Positions 5,138 through 60,138 of a DNA stretch of 64,000 nt are shown here, piece after piece. The translations under genes were made by a program, and so were the position numbers. The stretch is from Nitrospirota bacterium (lineage in GTDB: Bacteria > Nitrospirota > Thermodesulfovibrionia > Thermodesulfovibrionales > UBA1546), in the NCBI GenBank assembly GCA_021824065.1, contig JAKALU010000003.1, positions 5,553 to 69,552 on the forward strand. Direction: 5' to 3'. Every line of letters starts with the position of its first letter. Within the stretch, counting starts at the first letter, position 1. Below the pieces are notes generated by a model. The model did not search any database, was not told the DNA's origin, and worked only from the letters and a program-made list of their open reading frames with translations.

Positions 5138-5527
5138 TCACACCTCAAATGCATCCTCAATATGCTCGATCTCTTTTTTGTCATTATTCATGTGAATGCT
5201 CATAACATCGAACCTGACAGCACAGTCCTTTTTATGTTTTTTAAGGTATAGAAGCGCCAGATTCTTAAGCTTATGTCGTTTTTTTGAGTTAACCGCCTCA
5301 AACGGATAGCCAAAGGAATCAGTCGTACGTGTTTTAACTTCAACAAATACGAGTGTTTCTCCATCTTTTGCAACAACATCAATTTCACCAATAGGTGTTT
5401 TGTAATTTCTTGAGATGATTTTATAGCCTTTGTCTTTCAGGAAATTTACAGCAAGGTCTTCACCCTCACTGCCAATGAGCTTCATCTGCTTCAAGTCTCC
5501 CGAGGAGCTTTGGAATGCCCTCCACAT
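5138..5527 (-). CDS. yraN: YraN family (UPF0102) endonuclease-like protein
   Basis: GEDLAVNFLKDKGYKIISRNYKTPIGEIDVVAKDGETLVFVEVKTRT is the family signature. The start may instead be the ATG at 5485 (MKLIG...). Confidence 0.8.
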   Translation of the reverse strand: MWRAFQSSSGDLKQMKLIGSEGEDLAVNFLKDKGYKIISRNYKTPIGEIDVVAKDGETLVFVEVKTRTTDSFGYPFEAVNSKKRHKLKNLALLYLKKHKKDCAVRFDVMSIHMNNDKKEIEHIEDAFEV

Positions 5528-5897
5528 CTTTTATATCTTTCTGGCAGAGGATCTTTATAATCTCCCTGAATGCTGAAAATTCCTCCCACTGCCCGTTTAA
5601 GAGCCGGCACAGAGCCTTATTAAGACTTTCTCCCTTATCATCCCAGTCGAGAAGTAGTATTACCTTTTGAAAGTTCTCTGATATCTCTTCGCAGAACTCA
5701 TAGATGCCCTGACCATTATGCACTGTGAGTATCTCACCAACAAGCCCGAGCTTTCTGAGTGCAGCAGCATCTCTCTTGCCCTCAACTATAACAGGGATAT
5801 CCTTGTTTATTTCTTGCAGGGCATCAAAGACCTCCCTCAGTTTTAATGCCCTGTCTGTATTATTGGATAATTGACCGTTTCTCTGAGTATATATCAT
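5466..5897 (-). CDS. Small Toprim-domain protein
   Basis: The track ORF 5466-6176 is trimmed to the internal ATG at 5895-5897, because its N-terminal 93 aa run antisense into gmhA. IPVIVEGKRDAAALRKLG...LLLDWDDKGESL matches Toprim E...DxD. Confidence 0.65.
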   Translation of the reverse strand: MIYTQRNGQLSNNTDRALKLREVFDALQEINKDIPVIVEGKRDAAALRKLGLVGEILTVHNGQGIYEFCEEISENFQKVILLLDWDDKGESLNKALCRLLNGQWEEFSAFREIIKILCQKDIKDVEGIPKLLGRLEADEAHWQ

Positions 5898-6015
5898 CGT
5901 TGACACCTTTTTATATATTTTAACCCGGTGAAGATAAAAAAACCATAAATTTAATTGACATATAAAGTCTGTTTGGATTACTCTACTTATCAGAAATTGT
6001 GAGGCAAAAAGGGGT

Positions 6016-6600
6016 ATGAAGGACAAGATATTAAAGGCATTCGAAGAAAGCATAAGCGTCAAAGAGAAGTTTGTAAAAGACAACATTGATGCCATAGTTG
6101 AAGTCTCAAAGGTCATAGCAGATACATTTAATGACGAAAAGAAACTTATCCTTTTTGGCAATGGCGGAAGTGCCACAGATGCTTCTCATATAGCTGCTGA
6201 ATTTGTTAACAGGTTCAAAAAAGAGCGCCCGAGCCTCCCTGCGATTGCACTTAACACCGACATGGCAATCATTACAGCAATTGCTAATGATTATGACTAT
6301 TCAGAAGTCTTTGCAAAACAGCTTAAGGCTCTCGGAAAAGAAGGCGACATTGTCCTTGCAATCAGCACGAGTGGAAGTTCTGCTAATGTGCTGAAGGCAA
6401 TGGACGTAGCAAAGAAAAAGAAGATAAAGACAATTGCGTTCACAGGGGCCAAAGGCGAAAAGTTCGCATCGAAAGCTACATATGCATTCATTGTCCCGTC
6501 TGACAACACACCAAGAATTCAGGAGACCCACATAACGCTTGGCCACGTCCTCTGCCAGATGGTGGAGGAGATACTATTTGAGGCACCAAGAAAAAGATAG
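6016..6600 (+). CDS. gmhA: SIS-domain phosphoheptose isomerase (GmhA/DiaA family)
   Basis: 194 aa. Contains FGNGGSATDASHIAAEF and ISTSGSSANV motifs. Confidence 0.8.
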   Translation: MKDKILKAFEESISVKEKFVKDNIDAIVEVSKVIADTFNDEKKLILFGNGGSATDASHIAAEFVNRFKKERPSLPAIALNTDMAIITAIANDYDYSEVFAKQLKALGKEGDIVLAISTSGSSANVLKAMDVAKKKKIKTIAFTGAKGEKFASKATYAFIVPSDNTPRIQETHITLGHVLCQMVEEILFEAPRKR

Positions 6601-7186
6601 ATCGAAAATTATACTCGGCATTGACCCGGGAAGTATCGCCTGTGGCTTTGGAGTTATTAGCGCTGAAATACCAAAGAGCGGTCTCCTTGGCGACTCGCCC
6701 CCGCACACAGACGGGTTCGCTGAGAAGAATGAGGCGAGAAGAGCGGAAGGTCTCAAAGCCAGGACTTGTGCACTAAATCCTGCCTATATCGCTTCAGGGA
6801 GAATTGTGTTGTCTTCCCGTCGCCCACTGAATACAAGGTTGAAGGAACTTTATGACGCCTTAACAGATATCATAAAAGAATATTCTCCTGATGAGGTTGC
6901 CGTTGAAAAGATTTTCTTTGCAAAGAGTGTTAAGGCAGCTTTAACCCTTGGACAGGCAAGGGGTGCGGTACTGCTTGCAGCAGCGTCATGCGGGCTCCCT
7001 GTTTATGAGTACAGCGCTCTCTCTGTGAAGAAGGCAATTGTAGGCTATGGCAGGGCAGAGAAACATCAGGTCCAGGGAATGGTTTCAAAAATGTTGAATT
7101 TAAAATCCAAATTATCAAAGGACAGTGCCGATGCGCTTGCCATTGCACTCTGCCATACAAATACGCTAAGACTCGGTAAATTATAA
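6539..7186 (+). CDS. ruvC: Crossover junction endodeoxyribonuclease RuvC (start uncertain; carries an insertion of about 40 aa)
   Basis: ILGIDPGS...GFGVI and the C-terminal DSADALAIALCH are RuvC signatures. The conserved N-terminus begins near 6608, where only ATT or ATA codons are available. The TTG at 6539 would overlap gmhA by 62 nt. Confidence 0.85.
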   Translation: MATSSARWWRRYYLRHQEKDRSKIILGIDPGSIACGFGVISAEIPKSGLLGDSPPHTDGFAEKNEARRAEGLKARTCALNPAYIASGRIVLSSRRPLNTRLKELYDALTDIIKEYSPDEVAVEKIFFAKSVKAALTLGQARGAVLLAAASCGLPVYEYSALSVKKAIVGYGRAEKHQVQGMVSKMLNLKSKLSKDSADALAIALCHTNTLRLGKL

Positions 7187-49631: not shown

Positions 49632-50285
49632 TTACAGCTTAATCAAACCCTTTGCAATTGCAAATTTTATAAGCCCTGCGCGGCTGTGTATGTCAAGCTT
49701 CTCGGAAAGATTTGTCTGATGAGCGATAGCTGTTTTTGCGCTTATTCCGAGGATGTCTGCTATCTCCTTGTGTGTATGCCCTTCTGCTATCAGTTTTAAA
49801 ACCTGCTTCTCCCTATCTGTTAGAATCTCATAAGGGTCTTCCGTTGTTTTGCCCCTCTGGATGCCACGATATTCATCAATAACACTCGCTGCAATGGATG
49901 GATGTAAATATGCCTCTCCACCGGCAATGGCTTTAATTGCGGTTATGAGGTCTATTCCAACGGCCCTTTTAAGCATGTATCCGGACGCCCCTGCCTTGAG
50001 AAAGCGCTTTACGTACTCTTTGTCTTCGTATTGTGTTAGAACAAGCACCTTTGTATTAGGGTCGATTTTTTTAATCTCTACAAGTGCCTCCAAACCTCCG
50101 AGTTTTGGCATTGCTATATCCATAAGTACAACGTCGGGCTTGAATTTCTTGACCCCTTCTATGGCCTCTATCCCATCAGCAGCTTCTCCGACCACCTCTA
50201 TATCGGATGACATTTTAAGAAATGCTGCAATACCTTCTCTCACCAGCGCATGGTCGTCTGCGATCATCACTCTTATCTTAGACAT
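49632..50285 (-). CDS. NarL/LuxR-family response regulator
   Basis: Start set to MSKIRVMIADDH at 50285, 2 nt after the kinase stop. REC domain (DVVLMDIAMP) followed by a LuxR HTH (LTDREKQVLKLIAEGHTHKEIADILGIS). Confidence 0.9.
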   Translation of the reverse strand: MSKIRVMIADDHALVREGIAAFLKMSSDIEVVGEAADGIEAIEGVKKFKPDVVLMDIAMPKLGGLEALVEIKKIDPNTKVLVLTQYEDKEYVKRFLKAGASGYMLKRAVGIDLITAIKAIAGGEAYLHPSIAASVIDEYRGIQRGKTTEDPYEILTDREKQVLKLIAEGHTHKEIADILGISAKTAIAHQTNLSEKLDIHSRAGLIKFAIAKGLIKL

Positions 50286-52110
50286 TCCTATCTCCAAGGG
50301 GTTCAAAAGGGATCCATAGGTTGATTCTTGTTCCGCTGCCGGGCTCAGAACATATCTGCAACCGCCCGTCCAGAAGATTTGCCCTCTCTTTCATGCCTAA
50401 TATACCAAGCCCTCTCCCATCCTCGGTACGTTTTAAGGCAGATTGCACATCAAACCCTTCGCCGTCGTCTTCTATATTAACGGCTATAGAATCGCTGAGA
50501 TATTTTAATATAACAAAAACATTTTCTGCTGCTGCATGTTTTGAAATATTCATTATGGATTCCTGTATTATTCTGAAAAATGTTGTTTCAATACGATAGC
50601 TGAGTCTCTGCTCCTCAACGCCCAGGACATTGAAAAAATATGTTATGCCTTTCTCTCCCAGATGTTTGTCAAGCAGCCACCTGATGGACGCCTCAAGCCC
50701 GAGGTCATCTAATATTGCAGGCCTGAGATTCTGGATTATATTGTGTATTCCATCGAGTGTGGTAAGCACGATGTTTTTCATCTCCTCTATTTTATCTAAA
50801 GGAGGGCTTTCAAGATACATATTGCACATATTAATCTTCATCAAAAGGGCTGACAATGTCTGCATTGTTTCATCGTGCAGACCCCGGGCTATCCTTTTCC
50901 TTTCATCCTCCTGAGCGGATATAACCTTTTTCAAAAGGTTTTGTACCTTCTGCTGGCTTTCCCTTATCTGTTTTGTCCTCTCGATTACCCGCTGTTCAAG
51001 TTCAACATTATACCGTTGAAGCCTTTCAAGTGAATCAGCCAGCTTGACACGCATAACTTCAAAGCTGGAGCTCAACATCCCGATTTCGTCTATTCCGCCG
51101 AACTCAATTGACTTCGACATATCCCCTTTTGCGATCTTGTGGGTAGCTCTAATCAGTTCATGCACAGGCTTTACTATGCTTTTGCTCATCCCGATTGCAA
51201 TTATCAGCGCAATCCCTATCGAGCCTATGCTGAAGGCCAAAAAAGTCTTTTTAAGTTTTGTGGCTGGCGCAAAGACATCTTTTTCCGGCTGAATTATAGA
51301 CACCCCCCAGTGTGCCATCTTGAGCGGGGCAAACGCCAGTATGTCTGTTGAACGGATAGTGCTGCTCCCGGTCTGTTTTTCCTTGTCAGAATGGCACCTA
51401 TGGCAAGTCCTGATCTCGGATCTTTTCTGTGCTATTAGATTTCCCAGAAACCTGTTATGGTCACTGCCTGTAAAAATCCTTTGGGGATTGTTGGACGCTA
51501 TAACAATGCCATGGCTGTCAACTATTTCCAGATAAGTATTAGGTTCTGTAGGCACTGCCTTAATAGTCTGGCCAATCCTGAGATTGGTGGGATCAATCTC
51601 TCCGCCCACCACACCAACAGTATCACCATTTTTATTTTTTAGAGGCACCAGAGCATATATAACCTTCTTTTTCATCGGCTCTACAGTGTATATATCTGAT
51701 ATCACGGGTTTGCCATCCAGAATAATTCTGTTTATATAAGGAATGCTCACAAGGTTTACATAGTTTTCAAACCTGGAAGGATAGCTTAAAACTATATTCC
51801 CTGTTTTGTCCAGAAGAAAAATACCATCTGTGAATATCGAATACCGATAGGCTGTTTTCAACGCCTCCTTTTCAGTCTCCCAGTCGTTGTCGCTTAGATC
51901 TACCTTTCCTGAAAGGGAGATATCATAAAGCCGGGTGAGGCTTCTCTCTAAAAGAAGGTCAATGTTATTCGCTATTATGCTGGCTAATGTCAGCCTGTTT
52001 TTCAATGAGCGGTCTATGGTTTCATCAACTGTTAAGTAACCTATTATCCCCAGACCTGTGGAAATGATAATTACATTGAGAATTATTGCAATAATTATTT
52101 TTTTCTGCAT
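50278..52110 (-). CDS. Sensor histidine kinase: periplasmic Cache-like domain bearing a CxxCH motif, then HAMP, HisKA_3 and HATPase
   Basis: 610 aa. TM1 at the N-terminus and TM2 at FLAFSIGSIGIALIIAIGM. CHRCH at residues 236-240 (nt 51391-51405). H-box RIARGLHDETMQTL. G-boxes DDGEGF and GLGILGM. Confidence 0.88.
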   Translation of the reverse strand: MQKKIIIAIILNVIIISTGLGIIGYLTVDETIDRSLKNRLTLASIIANNIDLLLERSLTRLYDISLSGKVDLSDNDWETEKEALKTAYRYSIFTDGIFLLDKTGNIVLSYPSRFENYVNLVSIPYINRIILDGKPVISDIYTVEPMKKKVIYALVPLKNKNGDTVGVVGGEIDPTNLRIGQTIKAVPTEPNTYLEIVDSHGIVIASNNPQRIFTGSDHNRFLGNLIAQKRSEIRTCHRCHSDKEKQTGSSTIRSTDILAFAPLKMAHWGVSIIQPEKDVFAPATKLKKTFLAFSIGSIGIALIIAIGMSKSIVKPVHELIRATHKIAKGDMSKSIEFGGIDEIGMLSSSFEVMRVKLADSLERLQRYNVELEQRVIERTKQIRESQQKVQNLLKKVISAQEDERKRIARGLHDETMQTLSALLMKINMCNMYLESPPLDKIEEMKNIVLTTLDGIHNIIQNLRPAILDDLGLEASIRWLLDKHLGEKGITYFFNVLGVEEQRLSYRIETTFFRIIQESIMNISKHAAAENVFVILKYLSDSIAVNIEDDGEGFDVQSALKRTEDGRGLGILGMKERANLLDGRLQICSEPGSGTRINLWIPFEPLGDRNV

Positions 52111-52159: not shown

Positions 52160-52900
52160 TCAAGTTGCCACCTTATCTTTCGGTATGCCCTCACCTTCTG
52201 AACCCTCAAGAGATATATTAAAAAGTCTTTCATATTCCAGAGGGTGTTCATGTATCATGCGTTCTTTTGAGATTTTGCCAGTAAAGATTACTGTATCTAA
52301 CGGGAATACCTCAGGGCTGAGTATAGAGTTATATATATGCCATAAAGCAACAATGAGAAAGACAAGGAATGCCTGATTTGTATGCAAGATCTTGGCGGTC
52401 GGGATAACCTCTCCGGGAAGGAATCGGGTAACAAGCGTAGGGAACCAGAGTGCCATCCCTGTTACAACCATCAAAAGCCCGCTGATAAGAACACCCCAAT
52501 ATTCAAACTTCTGCTTATAGTCATAGCGGTCACATCTTGCAGGATGACTTTCTATGCCAATGTAATACTTGATATTATGTATGGCATCAAGAAAATCCTT
52601 TTTGTTTATAATCATCGACGTCTGCCATTTCTTGAAGACAACTCCTATAATCCCGGCTATAATATGCACTGCAATAACAATTGAAAGGGCTATCCCTGTG
52701 TATCGGTGAATCAATCTTACATTGTCAATGCCACCTAACTGGAAAATAAACCACTGGGAAAGGGCAAGCGAATAGAATTTCTGAGAAAGTCCAGTTACAC
52801 CCAATATCCCGAGGGTTATTATAGTCATCCAGTGTTCAATAATGCGGGTGGTACTAAATCTTCTAATCTTGTCTTCCTTAATTATATTATCGCCTTTCAT
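52160..52900 (-). CDS. Dihaem cytochrome b, FdnI/HydC/PhsC-type (Ni/Fe-hydrogenase b-type cytochrome family)
   Basis: Start set to the ATG at 52898-52900, preceded by GAGGAGGG. RFSTTRIIEHW is the entry motif. Four TM helices with conserved His (HRYTG, VHI, ILH, WHIY). Confidence 0.8.
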   Translation of the reverse strand: MKGDNIIKEDKIRRFSTTRIIEHWMTIITLGILGVTGLSQKFYSLALSQWFIFQLGGIDNVRLIHRYTGIALSIVIAVHIIAGIIGVVFKKWQTSMIINKKDFLDAIHNIKYYIGIESHPARCDRYDYKQKFEYWGVLISGLLMVVTGMALWFPTLVTRFLPGEVIPTAKILHTNQAFLVFLIVALWHIYNSILSPEVFPLDTVIFTGKISKERMIHEHPLEYERLFNISLEGSEGEGIPKDKVAT

Positions 52901-52911
52901 TTGACCCTCCT

Positions 52912-54366
52912 CTATCTGGTAACCGCATAGCGCCATATATGTAACAATATCTGCAGGATCAACCCAATCATCGCAAAGGGGATAAAAACCCTGTATATCA
53001 GGCTAACAATAAAAACCATCGGAGCCCTTGTCAGGCTTGGTTTATAATGAGAGAGCCATGCATCCTGAAAATTTTCAGTTGCACCCTCATGACATTTCTG
53101 GCATCTCTTTGCCAGGTTTGCCTTTATTATTGCTGCATCAGAGCCTATGACACTGCTTATATTATGGGTGCCGTGGCAATCAGTACAAACAGCTATCTGC
53201 CTTGCTGGTTTGTAAAGCGTCTCTTTCTGTTTTTTGTAAAATCCCAAGGTAACTCCGTGAAAGTCCGAAAGATAGGTTTTTACAACATCAGTAGAAAGTC
53301 CGTACTTCTCCATAATCTCTTTGTTAGCGTGGCAGTTTCCGCATATATCGGGCACCCTCTCGCGGTAATCAGACGTTCGAGGGTCTGTTATGTTGTGCGC
53401 AGTGTGGCAGTCTATACATATAGGGACATCCTGAATGTGCTCGCTGATAAGCGCCTTACCATGAATGCTTTTTGCATATATCTCATATATTTCGGGGTGA
53501 CACCTCTGACACTTCTTTACAACAAAATTCTTCTCCTTTCCCCCGGGGGGTATCGAGTGAGAGCCGTGGCAGTCAGTACAGACAGGAGCCTTCAAGTTAC
53601 CCTGACTGAGCATTGTATAATGGATGCTTTCCATAGTTTTAGTATATTTATCAAAATGGCATCGCCTGCAACTCTCTGCAGAGGCAATGGCATAATCCCT
53701 CTTGGTCCTGAAGTTTCTCTGAGGGTGTTCTTCAGAGGAAAAGCCATAATGGCAGTCCGAACAGGTAAGTTTATTATGTACAGAGGCATCTATCAATAAT
53801 GCATCCACTTTAAGTGCTAATGTTTCGCCATCTTTAAAAACCATGTTTAACTTATGCCCGTGACAGCTCAGACAGTACTGTTTTTCAGAGGCAAATATTT
53901 TTCCACCCGCTACAGGCATAATTGAATGAGAACCATGGCAGTCAGTGCAAACATGTGACTTGTTTTCACTCTCTTCCCCCAGTAAACTGGCATGTATAGG
54001 CTTTGCACTGATCTGTTGATCTGTATGGCAATGCTTACATACAAGAGAAGATCTTATTTTATATTGCTTTTTGCTCCTGAATTTTCTTGCAGGGTGTTTG
54101 TCCGAGGAAAACTCATCGTGACAATCAGAACATGTCAGAGAATTATGAACAGAGGCTTTGAATTTTTCAGCATCCACATAAGCTGTTACAGATTCGTTAT
54201 TCTCAAATTTTTTGACTATCCCCAATTGTGCATGACACCCTAAACATTTCTGCGCTTCTTCCGAGAGAGCGGTATCTGCCGCACTAACGCTGTCAATAGA
54301 TATTATAAAAACCCAAAAAAGAGACAACAGAAAAAGGATTATTCTCTCCCCGCTCTTCATAGACAC
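52912..54366 (-). CDS. Membrane-anchored 13-haem c-type cytochrome
   Basis: 484 aa with a signal peptide. 13 CxxCH motifs counted. Residues of about 40-165 and 170-300 form a tandem 4-haem duplication. C-terminal TM helix MVFIVSLIYRVFIPFAMIGLILQILL. Confidence 0.9.
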   Translation of the reverse strand: MSMKSGERIILFLLSLFWVFIISIDSVSAADTALSEEAQKCLGCHAQLGIVKKFENNESVTAYVDAEKFKASVHNSLTCSDCHDEFSSDKHPARKFRSKKQYKIRSSLVCKHCHTDQQISAKPIHASLLGEESENKSHVCTDCHGSHSIMPVAGGKIFASEKQYCLSCHGHKLNMVFKDGETLALKVDALLIDASVHNKLTCSDCHYGFSSEEHPQRNFRTKRDYAIASAESCRRCHFDKYTKTMESIHYTMLSQGNLKAPVCTDCHGSHSIPPGGKEKNFVVKKCQRCHPEIYEIYAKSIHGKALISEHIQDVPICIDCHTAHNITDPRTSDYRERVPDICGNCHANKEIMEKYGLSTDVVKTYLSDFHGVTLGFYKKQKETLYKPARQIAVCTDCHGTHNISSVIGSDAAIIKANLAKRCQKCHEGATENFQDAWLSHYKPSLTRAPMVFIVSLIYRVFIPFAMIGLILQILLHIWRYAVTR

Positions 54367-54469: not shown

Positions 54470-55708
54470 TCAATGTGACTCCTTATATTCCGGGTGTTCT
54501 CTTATAACAGGCATACGGTTCAAAATCCATCTGAAGATGAGAATGTGAATAGTGATTATGGATGCAACAATAGCAACCTCCTGCCATGGCGGAATAATAT
54601 GGTGGAGATGACCCGGCAGATTCCAGTTGAATGCTATTATTGAAACATTGATCCTGTTTACTATAATCCCTAAGACAGCATAAAAGGCTCCGAACCTGAC
54701 AAGGCCAGCACTATTGTTTTTAACACCATATGTCAAGACAATAGCAGGGAGGAGAACGAACCCCAGTATCTCAACAAGAAACCAGTTCCCATAAGGGGTG
54801 CTCAGTAAGTGCCAGTTGTCATCATGGGCTACGCCAACTAACTTCAATGCGAGATAGACAAACAAACCGACACATGTACCTTTTCCAAGGCCAACGGTCA
54901 GTCTGTCAAGGCTTTCGAGGAAATTGTGGTCAGTGGCGCTTCTCAGAAACCGGGCTGCAAGGGTGCTGATAACAATTACCATGGCAAGGGCAGCATATAT
55001 GCTTGAGCTGAGGAAAAACACCGGTATATACGAGGAAAACCAGAGGGGATGGAGTTTTCCTGGAACGAGCAGGAACATTGCGCCGAGGGCAGACTGATGG
55101 AGTGTTGAAAGGATTATCCCGGCAATGGTCATGCCAATAACTATCATTGTTGCCCATTTATAAACCCTTCTTGACTTAATCCATTCCAGTATTGCCTCGC
55201 TGAATTCAAGGAACTGGACTGTAAGATAAGTGGCAACATGCCATGCAACGAGAAAAAGAACCGAGGCTGTGCCGAAACCGATTATCATAGGGTAATATAT
55301 ACGCCATGGCCTTCCAAGGTCGGTTAAAAGGTAAATTACAGCAAACAGGTAGCCCAGGAATCCTGTAAGGACTCCAAGTCTCACAAGGGGTTTGTATCTT
55401 TTAAAACCAAATATGTAATAGGCTGTCCCCATTACAAATCCAGTGGCTGAAAGTGGGACGCCACCAAAGAGTCCCCAGCCGAGTAAGATTCCCCATGGAT
55501 ATTCATTTGAAGCATGAGTAGCTGAAGCAAGCCCAAATACAAAACGGATAGCAATAACAGGGATGCCGATGCTCAATATAATAGCTGCAACGATATTGAA
55601 AGGAGTAATGAGTCTTCTGCTGTATTCAGGCCATGACATCCCCATAAGCAGTTTGTCCATAAACCATGATCTAAAGTTATCTGTTCCAGTTAATGTCCCG
55701 TTACTCAT
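54470..55708 (-). CDS. NrfD/PsrC-family polytopic quinone-interacting membrane protein
   Basis: 412 aa with about 10 TM helices. ATGA start/stop overlap with the upstream FeS gene. Its position next to a Tat FeS subunit is typical of the family. Confidence 0.8.
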   Translation of the reverse strand: MSNGTLTGTDNFRSWFMDKLLMGMSWPEYSRRLITPFNIVAAIILSIGIPVIAIRFVFGLASATHASNEYPWGILLGWGLFGGVPLSATGFVMGTAYYIFGFKRYKPLVRLGVLTGFLGYLFAVIYLLTDLGRPWRIYYPMIIGFGTASVLFLVAWHVATYLTVQFLEFSEAILEWIKSRRVYKWATMIVIGMTIAGIILSTLHQSALGAMFLLVPGKLHPLWFSSYIPVFFLSSSIYAALAMVIVISTLAARFLRSATDHNFLESLDRLTVGLGKGTCVGLFVYLALKLVGVAHDDNWHLLSTPYGNWFLVEILGFVLLPAIVLTYGVKNNSAGLVRFGAFYAVLGIIVNRINVSIIAFNWNLPGHLHHIIPPWQEVAIVASIITIHILIFRWILNRMPVIREHPEYKESH

Positions 55709-56715
55709 TTTTTCTCCTCCTCTTTTTCATGTTTTTGCCCTTTTTCCTTCTCCAAGTCCTCCCTGTGCCGCAGGGCTGCATATACCATACCGAAAAGGGC
55801 TGGCCAGACAGTAAATACTACAGGGACTGCGCCAAGAAATCCCTTTGTTTCTTCAATAAGTGGCTTTTGGGGAAGATTTGTCGGAAAGTCGAGATTCTCA
55901 AAGGGGACTCCAGAGATGTACATCCAACCCGTCCCTCCGGCTTCGTGTTCTCCATAAATATGGTCGATATACCTGTCAGGGTTTTTCATTATCTTTTCTC
56001 TTGCGATCTTGATTAAATCACTCCTCTTGCCAAATGTTATAGTCCCCACGGGACAGGCCTCTGCACATGCAGGGATACCGCCTTTTTTAATCCTGTCATA
56101 ACACATTACACATTTTACAATCTTTGGTTCCAAAGCACTATCATAATCATAGGCCGGGGCATAAAAAGGACAGGCTATCATGCAGTATCGGCACCCAAAA
56201 CATTTTTCCGGGTCATAGAGAACAGCGCCTTCAGGAGTTTTTGTATATGCGTGTATTGGACACGCAGAGGCGCAGGCTGGTTCGTTACAGTGGTTGCATT
56301 GTATTTTCCGATAAACAGGCTTGCTCTCATCCTTTGGATTTTTATACTGATTAACCACAGTGTAAGCCTGTGCAGTGGGTCTCCTTTTTTCTTTAAAAAC
56401 AGAAACGTCGTCAAATGAAGTTTTTGGCTTTGGGAGGTTATTTGCCTCATTACATGCCTTTTCACAGCTGCGACACCCTACACATGCAGTTAAATCAGTC
56501 AGACAGCCATAACGATTTGGCCAACCAGAGAATTCCTTTGAAGCAGCTACATCCTTATAGCTGCCGATGAGAACAGTACCTCCAATTCCGGCTACTGTTC
56601 CTAAAAATTTCCTTCGGCTGATTCCTCTTGCGTCACCTTCTTGAGGCTTATCTTCAGCGCTTTCTTCTGATATGCATTCATTAGCCACCACTGGATTTTT
56701 TAGTGGTTTATCCAT
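55705..56715 (-). CDS. Tat-exported 4x[4Fe-4S] ferredoxin-type subunit with a C-terminal TM anchor (HybA/NrfC/HmcB-like)
   Basis: Twin-arginine signal SRRKFLGTVAGIGG. Four Cys clusters: CVGCRSCEKAC, CNHCNEPACASACP, CFGCRYCMIACP and CVMC...CAEACP. C-terminal helix GAVPVVFTVWPALFGMVYAAL. Confidence 0.88.
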   Translation of the reverse strand: MDKPLKNPVVANECISEESAEDKPQEGDARGISRRKFLGTVAGIGGTVLIGSYKDVAASKEFSGWPNRYGCLTDLTACVGCRSCEKACNEANNLPKPKTSFDDVSVFKEKRRPTAQAYTVVNQYKNPKDESKPVYRKIQCNHCNEPACASACPIHAYTKTPEGAVLYDPEKCFGCRYCMIACPFYAPAYDYDSALEPKIVKCVMCYDRIKKGGIPACAEACPVGTITFGKRSDLIKIAREKIMKNPDRYIDHIYGEHEAGGTGWMYISGVPFENLDFPTNLPQKPLIEETKGFLGAVPVVFTVWPALFGMVYAALRHREDLEKEKGQKHEKEEEKK

Positions 56716-56757: not shown

Positions 56758-57228
56758 TTATTTGCTGGTTTTCATGCTTACTTTCTGTTCCTTCTTATCA
56801 TGGCACATCTCAGTACAGCCCTTTGGGTCTATACCGACATTGCCCATCCCCCTGTGGCACTGGAAACACTGGCTGTGGTATGCAGCCTTGAGCCCTGGCA
56901 TATTTGGGTTTGCAGGGTCAAAGTTACTGTGACAATTTTTACAGGCCATAAAGTTATTAACTACTGAACCCTTGAAGGTAGATGGACTAACAGCATGGCA
57001 ATCTTTGCATGGCAGCGCCCCACTATTGCCATGCTGGTGGTGGCACATCCCGCAGTTGCCTGCTATCGAGATATGTTTTGCATGGTTGAATATCACCGGC
57101 CCATATTTGTCTGACAAACTGTCCAGCTTAACAAGACTCGGAGTCTTTGCAGAATTTCCTGCATAAAGAGATGCAGCAAAGAAAATGCAGAGACTAATTA
57201 CAAAGACTAAGATTCCTATCTTCCTCAT
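56758..57228 (-). CDS. Periplasmic class III (c3/c7-type) cytochrome, 4 CxxCH + 1 CxxxCH
   Basis: Start set to the ATG at 57228, preceded by AAAGGAGG. Has a signal peptide. Motifs are CGMCH, CKDCH, CKNCH, CFQCH and CTEMCH. Confidence 0.85.
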   Translation of the reverse strand: MRKIGILVFVISLCIFFAASLYAGNSAKTPSLVKLDSLSDKYGPVIFNHAKHISIAGNCGMCHHQHGNSGALPCKDCHAVSPSTFKGSVVNNFMACKNCHSNFDPANPNMPGLKAAYHSQCFQCHRGMGNVGIDPKGCTEMCHDKKEQKVSMKTSK

Positions 57229-57402
57229 TATTATCTGACCTCCTTTATACATGACTTAAATAACATTACTCAGGACTATTCGAAAGGGCATTCTTAAAAT
57301 CGCCCCTCATGCTCCATTTGCGAGCCGGAGGCGAAGCAATCTCAAAATAAAGGGATTGCTTCGTCGCTATGATCTCCTCGCAATGGTTTCTTAAATAGAT
57401 CA

Positions 57403-57810
57403 TTATTTGTTTTCACCTTTTTCAATCTCGGTTTCTTCCTTCTTGCCCTTCTTTTTACCAGCTAAATATGCCTCTGTGGGTCTCCATCCAAAGGATGCGC
57501 TTCTGCCCGCCAGTGACAGAACGCTGTTGATAGCTACTGTGCTGAGCGCAAACATAAAACTGAAAGGCAGGGCAATCACATAGGCCAGCCCAATAAACGG
57601 GGCAGCCGCTACCTTACCCATAGTCCTGAGCGTATCCTTATATCCTGTTTTCTTAATAAACTCTAAATCTTCCTTGCCGGAGTGTATCAAGGTCTTGAAA
57701 GGCCTGTGTTTCAATACCTCCCAGTAAATGATGTATCCTGCGATTGCCGAGACGGCTATAATGTACTCCACCCCCTTAACATGGGTCATGAAATCAAAAA
57801 GAGTATTCAT
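57403..57810 (-). CDS. Small membrane protein, paralog 1, ending in SFGWRPTEAYLAGKKKGKK plus an acidic tail
   Basis: 135 aa with a GGAAGGAGG RBS and two or three hydrophobic helices. The C-terminal motif is shared with 57889-58236. Confidence 0.65.
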   Translation of the reverse strand: MNTLFDFMTHVKGVEYIIAVSAIAGYIIYWEVLKHRPFKTLIHSGKEDLEFIKKTGYKDTLRTMGKVAAAPFIGLAYVIALPFSFMFALSTVAINSVLSLAGRSASFGWRPTEAYLAGKKKGKKEETEIEKGENK

Positions 57811-57888
57811 CTTATTCCTCCTTCCTAATTGTTAAATTACTAACCTTTTTTGTAAACAAAGTTAACCTACCTTAAAATCTTATGCCGA

Positions 57889-58236
57889 CTATGATGAATC
57901 GGTTGTCTTATCATTTTTCTTCTTCCCTTTTCTCTTGCCAGCTAAATATGCCTCTGTAGGTCTCCAGCCAAAGGATGCGATATTCCACATGCCTTTGAAA
58001 ATCTTTTCTGCCAGCAGTGATATCATCATCGCTATCGCTATGAACGGCAGAAATATCACATACAGCAGTCCCAGAATCGGTCCCAACAGTAACATAACGC
58101 TGGGTGGAAACCTGGTATACGTTGAATTCTTATCTCCTGGAAGCACCCCCTCATTTGGGATATCTATCCTGCCTCCATTCGATAAATCCCAGTAAGTCCC
58201 CTTTCCTACCTTATGTCCTCCGCTGTATTTAAGCAT
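57889..58236 (-). CDS. Small membrane protein, paralog 2, ending in SFGWRPTEAYLAGKRKGKKK
   Basis: 115 aa with a GGAAGGAGG RBS. The N-terminal soluble part is GKGTYWDLSNGGRIDIPNEGVLPG, followed by a TM hairpin. Confidence 0.65.
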   Translation of the reverse strand: MLKYSGGHKVGKGTYWDLSNGGRIDIPNEGVLPGDKNSTYTRFPPSVMLLLGPILGLLYVIFLPFIAIAMMISLLAEKIFKGMWNIASFGWRPTEAYLAGKRKGKKKNDKTTDSS

Positions 58237-58363
58237 CTTTTTTCACCTCCTTCCTCATCCTTGTATTTATTTCCCTGTTCATCTTGATTACAAGATAGCA
58301 GATATTAAAGGCTAATATAATTGGAAGAAGTTCCTAATTTTTATAGGGATTTTGTCTTAAATT

Positions 58364-58380
58364 AGCAAAGATTTTCCCGA
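58364..58380 (-). promoter_or_regulatory. Weak sigma-54-like element cGGgaaaatctTTGCt (GG-N10-GC)
   Basis: The minus-strand reading of 58364-58380 satisfies GG-N10-GC with TTGCT at -12, but matches poorly at the other -24 positions. It lies about 130 nt upstream of the 58236 start. A sigma-54-dependent regulator gene lies 2 kb upstream. Confidence 0.25.
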
Positions 58381-58435
58381 CACAGGGGAAAGTCGGATAA
58401 GTGGGTAGATTAATAACAATTTATTTGCAACTAAT

Positions 58436-58488: not shown

Positions 58489-59028
58489 TTAGCGAAGCAT
58501 ACTATCTGCGACCTTTATCAGATCAAATGGAGGTGATTTCATTACTACTGTTACCCTGTATTTCCCTTCATCCCATGAAATCCGGCTGCACGGCTCATCA
58601 TTCTTACAGAGACCAACCTCGAGTACTGCATTTCTGCCTTTTAAAGGGTAAGTGACTTTTTCTTTAACCTGTAATATCTTTATTTTCTTATCAGGGACAA
58701 AATTTGCACCGGCAGCAACCTGAGATATTATAAGGGCAATATCTCCCCTCTCTCTATGTTTGAACTCCATTACTACTGCAGTGAAAGGTTTATTCTGAGC
58801 CAGTATTTCCGATGGAGGCCATGTAAAGTTTTGAGGGAAATATGACGGAACATATATGTTTTTGATATTTAATCGTAATCTGACTTCTTCAACACTGCTG
58901 TATCTTCTTATGGCATCCTTCTGAATTGCCATTGGCAACCAGTTAAGAATCTTTAAAACTGCAATCAGGATTACAACTGTTATTGCAAAATAAAAAAAAC
59001 TGAAGAATTTCCTATGCACTGTTTTCAC
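58489..59028 (-). CDS. Membrane-anchored hypothetical protein (single N-terminal TM, beta-rich ectodomain)
   Basis: 179-aa ORF flanked on both sides by the REP-like element. No motif was recognised. Possibly an accessory partner of the upstream M56-like protease. Confidence 0.5.
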   Translation of the reverse strand: MKTVHRKFFSFFYFAITVVILIAVLKILNWLPMAIQKDAIRRYSSVEEVRLRLNIKNIYVPSYFPQNFTWPPSEILAQNKPFTAVVMEFKHRERGDIALIISQVAAGANFVPDKKIKILQVKEKVTYPLKGRNAVLEVGLCKNDEPCSRISWDEGKYRVTVVMKSPPFDLIKVADSMLR

Positions 59029-59037
59029 TCCTCATAT

Positions 59038-59147
59038 TGAAGCTCTCTGCAGCAAGCTGCAAGGCTTCGAGATGTAAAAAACTATTCCTTCTTTCATATC
59101 CGCTCACTAATCCAGCAGCGGGAATGCGCTCGCTGTGCCTTCTCATC
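59038..59147. repeat. REP-like element, split copy (GAAGCTCTCTGCAGCAAGCTG ... about 55 bp ... GGGAATGCGCTCGCTGTGCCTTCTCATC)
   Basis: Both halves match 58436-58483, separated here by an insert. Confidence 0.65.
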
Positions 59148-60138
59148 ATACAATAAAATAGTTTATTATTGTAATTACAATAAATGTGACTATAAACTTA
59201 AACCATCCGCCGTCTTTTTCATGTGCCAATCCCTGTTCAAGCTGCATAATTCTATTTTTTATGAGCATATTATGGCTATACTCTTCGAGTGCTGCTCCTA
59301 TTTTTGAGGGTTTTGTAATCTGAACCGGGGCGATGTCTTCATGTGTATAGTAAAGTTTTTTAAGGGTCTCAATCAGCGCATAAGGTTTCCCTGTTAAAGT
59401 TACTGCGATGTTGTCACATATCTGTTCATCTTCCTGGACAATCTTTCTAAATTCTACAAGGACTATCGGGTTAAAGAACATCGATATCCTTAAAAGAAAG
59501 AGCATTAAGATTAAAGGCTGCCTACTCCTTGTAATATGGGCAATTTCATGGGCCAGTGCTGCCTGTATCTGTTCTATATTAAGCATTTTTACAAGGCCGG
59601 TAGATAGGAAGATTGCAGTATTCTTACCGGTTGTAGAAAACAATATAAAATCATTGTCATCAATTATAAAGATATCAGGTTTTTCCACAGGTAAAGACTC
59701 CAATGCCTTGCTGACAATAGAATTATCATCAGGGGTTTCCCCCTCGGATGTAGATTCTTTTGATTCGATGGTATGCCTCAAGATAGGGATTATCTCCTGC
59801 AAAAAAGATATCAGGGTTGTGATAAATAAAATAATAATAAACAGCAGGCTTAATGGAAACTTCCCCCATAATTCCAGACTCAGCCACCTGTTAATATCAA
59901 AAAGCGCTTCCAGTCTGAAGTAGACTGACCCTCTCCCAGAATTTATCGTTTGATATACTGGGAATGAAAGAATCGGGGATATAATGACTATATAACGAAA
60001 TCTCTGCTTTATTAAAGGATTGTTAATCTTCCATGCCTGAATGGATCTGTCCACTATAATAGCAGCTATTAACGCGTGGCATATTGACTGGGCTATATAC
60101 ATGCCAATATAGGAGTTGAAAAAGTTTGAGATGCTCAT
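59146..60138 (-). CDS. M56 (BlaR1-like)/M48-type membrane zinc metalloprotease homolog
   Basis: 330 aa. N-terminal TM helices, the HExxH motif in ALAHEIAHITRSR followed by a TM segment, and a C-terminal TM helix. Confidence 0.65.
   Translation of the reverse strand: MSISNFFNSYIGMYIAQSICHALIAAIIVDRSIQAWKINNPLIKQRFRYIVIISPILSFPVYQTINSGRGSVYFRLEALFDINRWLSLELWGKFPLSLLFIIILFITTLISFLQEIIPILRHTIESKESTSEGETPDDNSIVSKALESLPVEKPDIFIIDDNDFILFSTTGKNTAIFLSTGLVKMLNIEQIQAALAHEIAHITRSRQPLILMLFLLRISMFFNPIVLVEFRKIVQEDEQICDNIAVTLTGKPYALIETLKKLYYTHEDIAPVQITKPSKIGAALEEYSHNMLIKNRIMQLEQGLAHEKDGGWFKFIVTFIVITIINYFIV

Follow-up and report, generated by a model that had tools for sequence, protein, structure and literature searches.

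Two small membrane proteins share a conserved C-terminal module

The DNA analyzed here is a stretch of 64,000 nucleotides (the window) from a Nitrospirota bacterium (contig JAKALU010000003.1 of assembly GCA_021824065.1), which also matches a contig of assembly GCA_027346725.1. On its minus strand, two adjacent genes, hereafter named B and A in the order in which they are read, encode small proteins of 115 and 135 aa that end in the same module. This module of about 60-75 residues consists of a long uncharged helix with the signature (G/A)PxxGLxY...LPF, followed by a juxtamembrane motif FGWRPxEAYLxG and a polybasic run. Judged against curated families and published papers, it is a genuine, well-conserved and previously undescribed protein module. 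An earlier inspection of the letters of this DNA (the sequence-only reading) had already reported the two genes, each with a GGAAGGAGG ribosome-binding site (RBS), their mutually unrelated N-terminal parts and their position at the head of a cytochrome operon, and had not recognized the family. These points were borne out by the present analysis, the last of them for the shared part of the proteins. What had been overlooked is that the N-terminal part of A contains an HmcD-like helix.

Both open reading frames (ORFs) and both RBS were found on the minus strand; the spacer from GGAAGGAGG to the ATG measures 9 nt in B and 6 nt in A. Protein B has a beta mini-domain at its N-terminus and, behind it, a long hydrophobic helix with a FGWRPTEAYLAGKRKGKKK tail. 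In protein A, the HmcD-like transmembrane helix at the N-terminus is followed by a basic loop helix and then by a long hydrophobic helix with a FGWRPTEAYLAGKKKGKK tail. The only segments that BlastP aligned between the two proteins were residues 77-118 (A) and 59-100 (B), at 48% identity and E 1e-9; since the alignment is confined to these 42 C-terminal residues, the N-terminal parts are unrelated. Alignment of the A-family profile with the B-family profile using hhalign gave a probability of 99.8% (E 9.5e-28) over about 75 C-terminal columns, showing that the C-terminal similarity reflects homology and not chance. These features establish B and A as real, expressed-looking genes for what are predicted to be two paralogous small inner-membrane proteins.

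Homologues at E<=0.01 numbered 414 for A and 172 for B, and those bearing organism names come almost all from metagenome-assembled genomes (MAGs) of Nitrospirota/Thermodesulfovibrionales. Sequence logos showed that the motif, extended to F-G-W-R-P-x-E-A-Y-L-x-G-K-K-K, is near-invariant, being found in 118/120 homologues of the A family and 111/120 of the B family, the remainder differing by single substitutions. In the A family, the residues F, W, R, P, E, Y and G were present in 118/118 sequences, while the B family tolerates a few conservative changes.

To assess how widely the module occurs, a profile of the module only was searched against 1.84 billion representative proteins. This yielded 562 clusters (50% identity) at E<=1e-3, of which 151 at E<=1e-10. 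Four architectures were distinguished. The first is the module only, in proteins of about 70-100 aa, among which a version of 81 aa is very common and substitutes for B in many genomes. The second, B-type, places a GGxKVxKGTYW...G.R.D...EGVLPGD domain in front of the module, and the third, A-type, an HmcD-like helix. In the fourth (P0304, P0311, P0320, P0326, P0368, P0373, P0375 and P0507), two to three copies of the hydrophobic helix (AAPFIGLAYxxxLPxVG) are joined by basic Arg/Lys-rich linkers and lack the FGWRP tail; in some of these proteins, the repeats follow a CheY-like receiver domain or a fragment of HypA. From their sequences, these hydrophobic-helix repeat proteins seem to represent a separate membrane-anchor repeat that lacks annotation.

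Neither B nor the module-only and repeat proteins matched a family in Pfam-A (2025 copy) or NCBIfam 20.0. Sequence searches of the PDB were empty or insignificant, and a Foldseek search of the PDB with the B model gave nothing better than E 0.3. A weak precomputed match to PF28014 ‘IcmT_2’ exists for one homologue. In the literature, no paper was found that mentions FGWRP in a relevant context. A role in anti-phage defense was also considered and dropped, as PADLOC found no match for the module proteins.

The near-identical DNA block is explained by selection on the peptide

The sequence-only reading had further noted that the DNA coding for the motif is far more alike in A and B than the rest of the two genes, and had proposed either recent gene conversion or strong selection. 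The observation itself was reproduced: the two 42-nt blocks differ at 2/42 positions, are offset by exactly 480 nt in frame, and are the best 42-nt match between A and B over all offsets. At the same offset, identity is 38% outside the block and 44% in the part coding for the hydrophobic helix. With a repeat finder, the match grew to 64 nt (57436-57499 and 57916-57979), of which 86% are identical. All differences in the core block are synonymous, so that 14 consecutive residues (ASFGWRPTEAYLAG) are identical in A and B.

We then compared the blocks in 79 other within-genome B/A pairs. Most differ at 5-19 positions, with a median of about 13; two outliers with 25 and 27 differences are due to mis-anchored motifs. 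At residues common to both paralogues, the family mean of identical codons is 43%, and the pair in the window, with 10/13 identical codons, lies in the tail of the family distribution (binomial p ~0.014). Because the paralogues use differing codons elsewhere, it is the peptide that is conserved and not the nucleotide sequence. For the same reason, a nucleotide-level constraint such as an RNA element was ruled out as the origin of the block. As the comparison of homologues shows, the near-identical DNA block exists owing to very strong purifying selection on the encoded peptide.

Could the block be a mere trace of recent conversion between diverged genes, with an unconstrained peptide? The 40/42 identity, including a share of identical codons well above the family mean, is in its favor, as is a relative of the window, L091, whose A is 66% identical to that of the window and whose B/A blocks also differ at 2/42, next to 2-3 of 42 for the window in this comparison. 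Between the window and L091, three sites (GCA/GTA, ACA/ACT and GCT/GCC) agree between the paralogues within each genome and differ between the genomes, the pattern expected of short-tract conversion. In another relative, L090, the blocks differ at 13/42. Conversion as the sole explanation is nevertheless barely credible, and we regard it as refuted, since hundreds of homologues in both families keep the peptide while using different codons. Moreover, the family-wide ratio of synonymous ‘concerted’ to ‘crossed’ sites is 1.58 in the motif and 1.64 in a control helix region, and such equal ratios indicate a shared codon bias. When only close genome pairs were considered, a modest concerted excess appeared (1.95 vs 1.21), which is suggestive at best, the genome pairs being non-independent. 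Concerted evolution across the whole family was therefore rejected. Of the two proposals, selection is thus clearly upheld, and conversion weakly, as a local extra: occasional short-tract events may add to the identity in the clade of the window.

B and A form a fixed unit at the head of an Hmc/Nhc-like operon

Gene order was examined in 79 loci from species-representative genomes plus others, mapped with the proteins of the window. The usual order is M56 metalloprotease, p179 (a 179-aa membrane protein), B, A, tetrahaem cytochrome c3, HmcB, HmcC, 13-haem (multihaem) cytochrome, cytochrome b, kinase and regulator (Table 1). It recurs across Nitrospirota, and MAGs bearing the labels Deferrimicrobia, Deltaproteobacteria, Dissulfurispiraceae and Deferribacterales have it as well. 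In 73/81 non-redundant loci, A has B or its short form immediately upstream, and in 38/44 operon-linked loci M56 and p179 are found upstream of B-A. Gene A stands two genes upstream of the HmcB-like and HmcC-like genes, an order kept in dozens of loci. Across the sampled loci, synteny thus shows B-then-A to be a fixed unit at the head of a putative Hmc/Nhc-like operon.

The pair also duplicates as a unit, giving B-A-B-A(-B-A) arrangements in L043, L045, L061 and L076. Tandem amplification reaches up to three times, with some copies nearly identical. Some genomes carry at least four loci (for instance MFD09730.bin.2.50, with L031, L032, L037 and L046), and some loci lie beside transposase-like genes. 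As a separate observation, a CBS-domain protein adjoins stand-alone module genes in three unrelated contexts (L021 8500-8943, L050 8299-8757 and L092 1134-1556); the domain is Pfam-confirmed in L092 and recognized by sequence only in L021 and L050.

Table 1. Features of the B-A pair and of the surrounding gene cluster in the window
Feature	Position	Strand	Evidence or remarks
M56 metalloprotease, HtpX/BlaR1-like	60138..59146	-	Pfam, NCBIfam
p179, 179-aa single-pass membrane protein, family-less	59028..58489	-	sequence; synteny
RBS GGAAGGAGG of B	58246..58254	-	sequence; repeat finder
Gene B, 115 aa	58236..57889	-	ORF; 172 homologues; alignment; AlphaFold2 model with mean pLDDT (predicted local distance difference test) 78
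Beta mini-domain of B, residues 1-44 (GGxKVGKGTYW...G.RID...EGVLPGD)	58105..58236	-	AlphaFold2 strands with pLDDT ~90; no PDB fold match
Shared C-terminal module in B, residues ~44-107	57916..58107	-	GPILGLLYxxxLPF helix + FGWRPxEAYLxGKRK; hhalign, logos
Motif-coding block in B	57938..57979	-	40/42 identical to 57458-57499
RBS GGAAGGAGG of A	57817..57825	-	sequence; repeat finder
Gene A, 135 aa	57810..57403	-	ORF; 414 homologues; alignment; NCBIfam HmcD match; Pfam PF28260 ‘DVU_0533’
HmcD-like helix of A, residues 2-33	57712..57807	-	NF045712 HmcD; precomputed PF28260 match
Shared C-terminal module in A, residues ~62-124	57439..57627	-	AAPFIGLAYxxxLPF helix + FGWRPxEAYLxGKKK; hhalign, module profile
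Motif-coding block in A	57458..57499	-	40/42 identical to 57938-57979
Tetrahaem cytochrome c3-like protein (4 CxxCH), directly downstream of A	56758..57252	-	domain searches; motif count
HmcB-like iron-sulfur (FeS) protein exported by twin-arginine translocation (Tat), with C-terminal membrane anchor	55705..56715	-	NF045715 411.8 bits, cut-off 420; RRKFLG signal + C-terminal helix
HmcC-like NrfD-family membrane subunit	54470..55708	-	NF045714 423.3 bits, cut-off 550; Pfam NrfD
13-haem cytochrome c with C-terminal membrane helix	52912..54366	-	13 CxxCH; Pfam cytochrome c7/c3
FdnI-type cytochrome b	52160..52936	-	Pfam Ni_hydr_CYTB; NCBIfam formate dehydrogenase gamma
dCache/HAMP/HisKA_3 histidine kinase + NarL-type response regulator, end of conserved cluster	49632..52110	-	domain searches; synteny

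The cluster resembles the Hmc and Nhc complexes in having a periplasmic multihaem cytochrome, a Tat-exported anchored FeS protein, an NrfD-like subunit and a small peptide (10.1101/2023.11.02.564894; PMC8076601). It differs from them in several respects. A tetrahaem c3 takes the place of the 16- or 9-haem cytochrome, and only the C-terminal part of the HmcA model is matched by it (56 bits vs a cut-off of 400). No HmcF-like gene is present in the cluster, and the cytochrome b is of the FdnI type, not of the NarI type (HmcE), and is paired with a separate 13-haem cytochrome. For the HmcB-like and HmcC-like proteins, the HmcB and HmcC models are the best matches, with scores below the equivalog cut-offs. 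On these annotations, the cluster is Hmc/Nhc-like but not Hmc, being without the 16-haem cytochrome, HmcE and HmcF. The HmcB-like protein has a Lys/Glu-rich end (RHREDLEKEKGQKHEKEEEKK) after its anchor helix, which resembles the low-complexity ends of A and B.

Residues 2-33 of A matched the 38-position NCBIfam model NF045712 HmcD with E 7.2e-7 and 29.1 bits, under the cut-off of 34. The A of the window and many homologues also have a precomputed Pfam PF28260 match (E<=1e-5), a family named after DVU_0533, which we take to be the hmcD locus of Desulfovibrio vulgaris. The Hmc and Nhc operons encode HmcD and NhcD as small hydrophobic peptides of unknown function (10.1101/2023.11.02.564894; PMC8076601). 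Protein A resembles them in residues 2-33, at the match strengths just given, and its gene lies in an operon with HmcB-like and HmcC-like genes. However, canonical HmcD is a single helix of about 40 residues, whereas A has 100 further residues that include the module; its gene precedes the cytochrome gene, while the canonical gene follows HmcC; and it is accompanied by B, a second paralogue without the HmcD helix. Given this size, this architecture and a sub-threshold score, A is best classified as HmcD-like and not as a canonical HmcD. The beta mini-domain of B is missing from the short (~81 aa) form that stands in for B in many genomes.

A and B as putative accessory subunits of the redox complex

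We tentatively favor the view that A and B are small accessory membrane subunits of the Hmc/Nhc-like complex and that both direct the same basic tail at a shared partner or at anionic lipid, although our confidence in it stays short of even. In such a quinone-interacting complex, the partners of A would be c3-HmcB-HmcC and those of B the 13-haem cytochrome and cytochrome b. The two tails, identical and basic, would lie on the cytoplasmic face and point toward a common partner, for which the surface of a membrane subunit, the M56 protease and the kinase are candidates, or toward anionic lipid. Such an arrangement could hold the two modules together or position them. The sequence-only reading had suggested a docking peptide for the downstream complex or a lipid-binding tail, and both suggestions are plausible.

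The assignment of each protein to one half of the complex comes from split operons. In L042, L043, L070 and L094, a B-type gene directly precedes the multihaem cytochrome and cytochrome b genes, and A directly precedes c3-HmcB-HmcC; in L093, a double B-type protein is encoded 2.4 kb from an HmcB/HmcC-like pair. These loci argue for a pairing of A with the NrfD-type module and of B with the cytochrome b module, and suggest that each of the two modules has its own small partner.

The orientation of the tails was assessed from charge distribution. The 15 residues before the uncharged stretch of A average 4.2 K+R vs 0.6 D+E, and its tail 6.7 vs 2.6; across the families, tail means are 6.4-6.9 K+R vs ~2 D+E per 20 residues. 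With both flanks of A basic, the positive-inside rule favors a cytoplasmic location of both, i.e., a hairpin or re-entrant segment, and the all-basic linkers of the repeat proteins point the same way. In B and the short forms, the N-terminal flank is neutral and the tail basic, which fits either a hairpin or a single span with the N-terminus outside. The tails of A and B are thus likely cytoplasmic. The AlphaFold2 model of B comprises a four-stranded mini-domain (residues 1-42, pLDDT ~90), a single long helix spanning residues 45-86 (pLDDT >90) and a tail that is disordered. That of A, with a low predicted TM-score (pTM), has helices at 4-33, 38-55, 57-106 and 111-133. One-sided conservation of the helix, which would have marked a packing face, was considered and dropped: in the N-terminal half, conservation extends to every face, and no clear periodicity of 100 degrees was seen.

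Several observations weigh against the accessory-subunit view. The first concern topology. The sequence-only reading had placed a transmembrane hairpin before the motif in both proteins, and the flanking charges of A favor this arrangement, but AlphaFold2 modelled the hydrophobic stretch of both A and B as one continuous long helix. Covariation did not side with a hairpin either: mean-field direct coupling analysis of 570 module sequences (effective number 250) gave no antiparallel pattern and was uninformative, the top 40 couplings lying almost all at |i-j|<=5, with many gap artefacts. Others concern gene context. Stand-alone B-A pairs occur in seven loci with enough flanking DNA, where no redox genes, M56 or p179 were found and the neighbors are variable. 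An array of three short forms and one A (L095 2079-3368) likewise has no redox genes nearby. In L092, a divergent Nitrospinae-like B-type gene adjoins the end of an uninterrupted block made up of orthologues of M56, p179, the kinase and the regulator, and the 9.9-kb contig is free of cytochrome genes. Furthermore, the split-operon argument draws on four loci from about three lineages, the NCBIfam HmcD score of A is under the cut-off, and we infer the physical link of A and B to the cytochrome subunits from gene context.

The arrangement in L092, where M56 and p179 (5481-7032) sit directly beside the orthologous kinase and regulator, brings in a regulatory or sensory device as another explanation. 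The tails would then be substrates or modulators of M56 and p179, or connectors to the dCache/HisKA_3 kinase, and their proteolysis or sequestration would tune operon expression. The same convergence of a B-type gene with the regulator was seen in L097, and M56 and p179 precede B-A in most operon-linked loci, as counted above. An invariant short motif at the membrane surface also resembles what would be expected of a protease or kinase recognition site, and M56/M48 proteases such as HtpX and BlaR1 act at the cytoplasmic face of the membrane. Yet none of the seven stand-alone pairs (0/7) has M56 or p179 nearby, and the HmcD-type helix in A points to a structural place in the complex. Cleavage of A or B is purely hypothetical, and Pfam and NCBIfam searches detected no BlaI-type repressor near M56/p179 and no BlaI-like or other output domain in A or B. 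The L092 contig is also short enough that cytochrome genes may sit beyond its ends. Overall, we consider a regulatory device rather unlikely, though a serious competitor.

The two ideas can be combined. The tail could be a cytoplasmic-face recognition element for the M56 protease (with p179 as its periplasmic partner) and/or for the kinase, the two subunits in the two halves of the complex reporting its state or undergoing regulated proteolysis. We hold this version to be improbable. If true, it would represent a novel type of signalling circuit, based on proteolysis and built into the electron-transport chain of an anaerobe, and tails that are protease or kinase targets would link the assembly of a respiratory complex to signalling.

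The module could also be a generic membrane-anchoring, membrane-shaping or lipid-binding element, built of a monotopic or re-entrant hairpin with an interfacial aromatic, polybasic tail and independent of the redox complex. It might, for instance, organize anionic-lipid domains, and its position at the operon head would be incidental or reflect co-expression only. The hydrophobic half also occurs without the tail in two to three tandem copies (P0304, P0311, P0320, P0326, P0368, P0373 and P0507). With 36 residues in A and 32-34 residues in both B and the short forms, the uncharged stretch exceeds the length of a single span yet is short for two. The basic flanks of A, the stand-alone pairs and the tandem amplification fit this explanation as well. 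Against it, the near-invariant G, P, E, A, Y and G of the tail exceed the usual needs of lipid binding, the adjacency to the same operon is strict across phyla, and AlphaFold2 and covariation gave no hairpin signal. A generic anchor is therefore an unlikely explanation, including in its lipid-domain form.

The combination of a conserved short motif with a hydrophobic helix and a cluster of basic residues at the C-terminal end, behind differing N-terminal parts and with a membrane protease encoded nearby, recalls the LPXTG, PEP-CTERM and GlyGly-CTERM signals, in which case the motif and basic run would be a sorting or processing signal read by a dedicated enzyme. The order of elements is different, however, being helix-motif-basic run and not motif-helix-basic run, which places the motif on the same side as the basic run. 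The proteins that would be the cargo are tiny and of few types (three), no sortase, exosortase or rhombosortase homologue was found in the cluster with Pfam and NCBIfam, and no NCBIfam sorting-signal model matched. A sorting signal is thus very unlikely.

Accessory subunits of the size of A and B have precedents. CydX of cytochrome bd and CcoQ of the cbb3 oxidase are short operon-encoded membrane proteins with presumed roles in stabilization or assembly. They are unrelated in sequence to A and B, and no subunit of this type is known to have a duplicated partner or such an invariant juxtamembrane motif. A purely functional analogy can be drawn with PspB/PspC and with LiaI/LiaF and the HisKA_3 kinase LiaS, where tandem small membrane proteins are likewise encoded beside a HisKA_3 kinase and NarL regulator; in the window, the pair is also beside an HtpX-like protease. 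However, A and B have no sequence similarity to these proteins and no Psp or Lia family match in Pfam or NCBIfam, and the cluster is without a PspA or LiaH partner. Docking of the basic loop of A to an acidic c3 by electrostatic attraction was also considered and ruled out, as the c3 here is basic (isoelectric point ~9).

Small membrane proteins are routinely missed or left ‘hypothetical’, and the module represents a sizeable unannotated family. It is linked to one specific respiratory cluster that is widespread in uncultured Thermodesulfovibrionia-type anaerobes and their neighbors. The hmc operon was reportedly described in 1993, and the role of HmcD is said to have remained unknown since. 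By extending HmcD, the module would offer a conserved and mutable 15-residue handle for probing HmcD-type peptides. We expect it to interest, to a moderate degree, those who specialize in anaerobic respiration or in small membrane proteins.

Signals and small ORFs in the spacers

Two 45-aa ORFs lie in spacers on the minus strand, one after A (57266-57403) and one between M56 and p179 (59012-59149). The latter is annotated as a gene in public records of the contig, yet it is absent from L005, and both are probably not genes. The interval separating B from p179 contains a hairpin that resembles a terminator, TTTCCCCTGTGTCGGGAAA with ATCTTTGCTA after it (58363-58391, minus strand), and is overlapped by a sigma-54-like GG-N8-TTGC pattern. 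A sigma-54 promoter upstream of B (~58364-58379, minus strand), at a site downstream of a sigma-54 activator gene, was considered and rejected: the pattern is present in 3/81 upstream regions, which is at or below background.

The 150-nt spacer between A and c3 contains a 10-bp stem (CGAAGCAAUC / GAUUGCUUCG) with a 12-nt loop (57332-57363, minus strand). This stem is followed by no T-run and is therefore not a classic terminator. When folded as a 153-nt segment, the spacer scored better than all 200 shuffles (z -2.66), and the stem could serve in processing or stability, setting how much of B and A is made relative to the downstream subunits.

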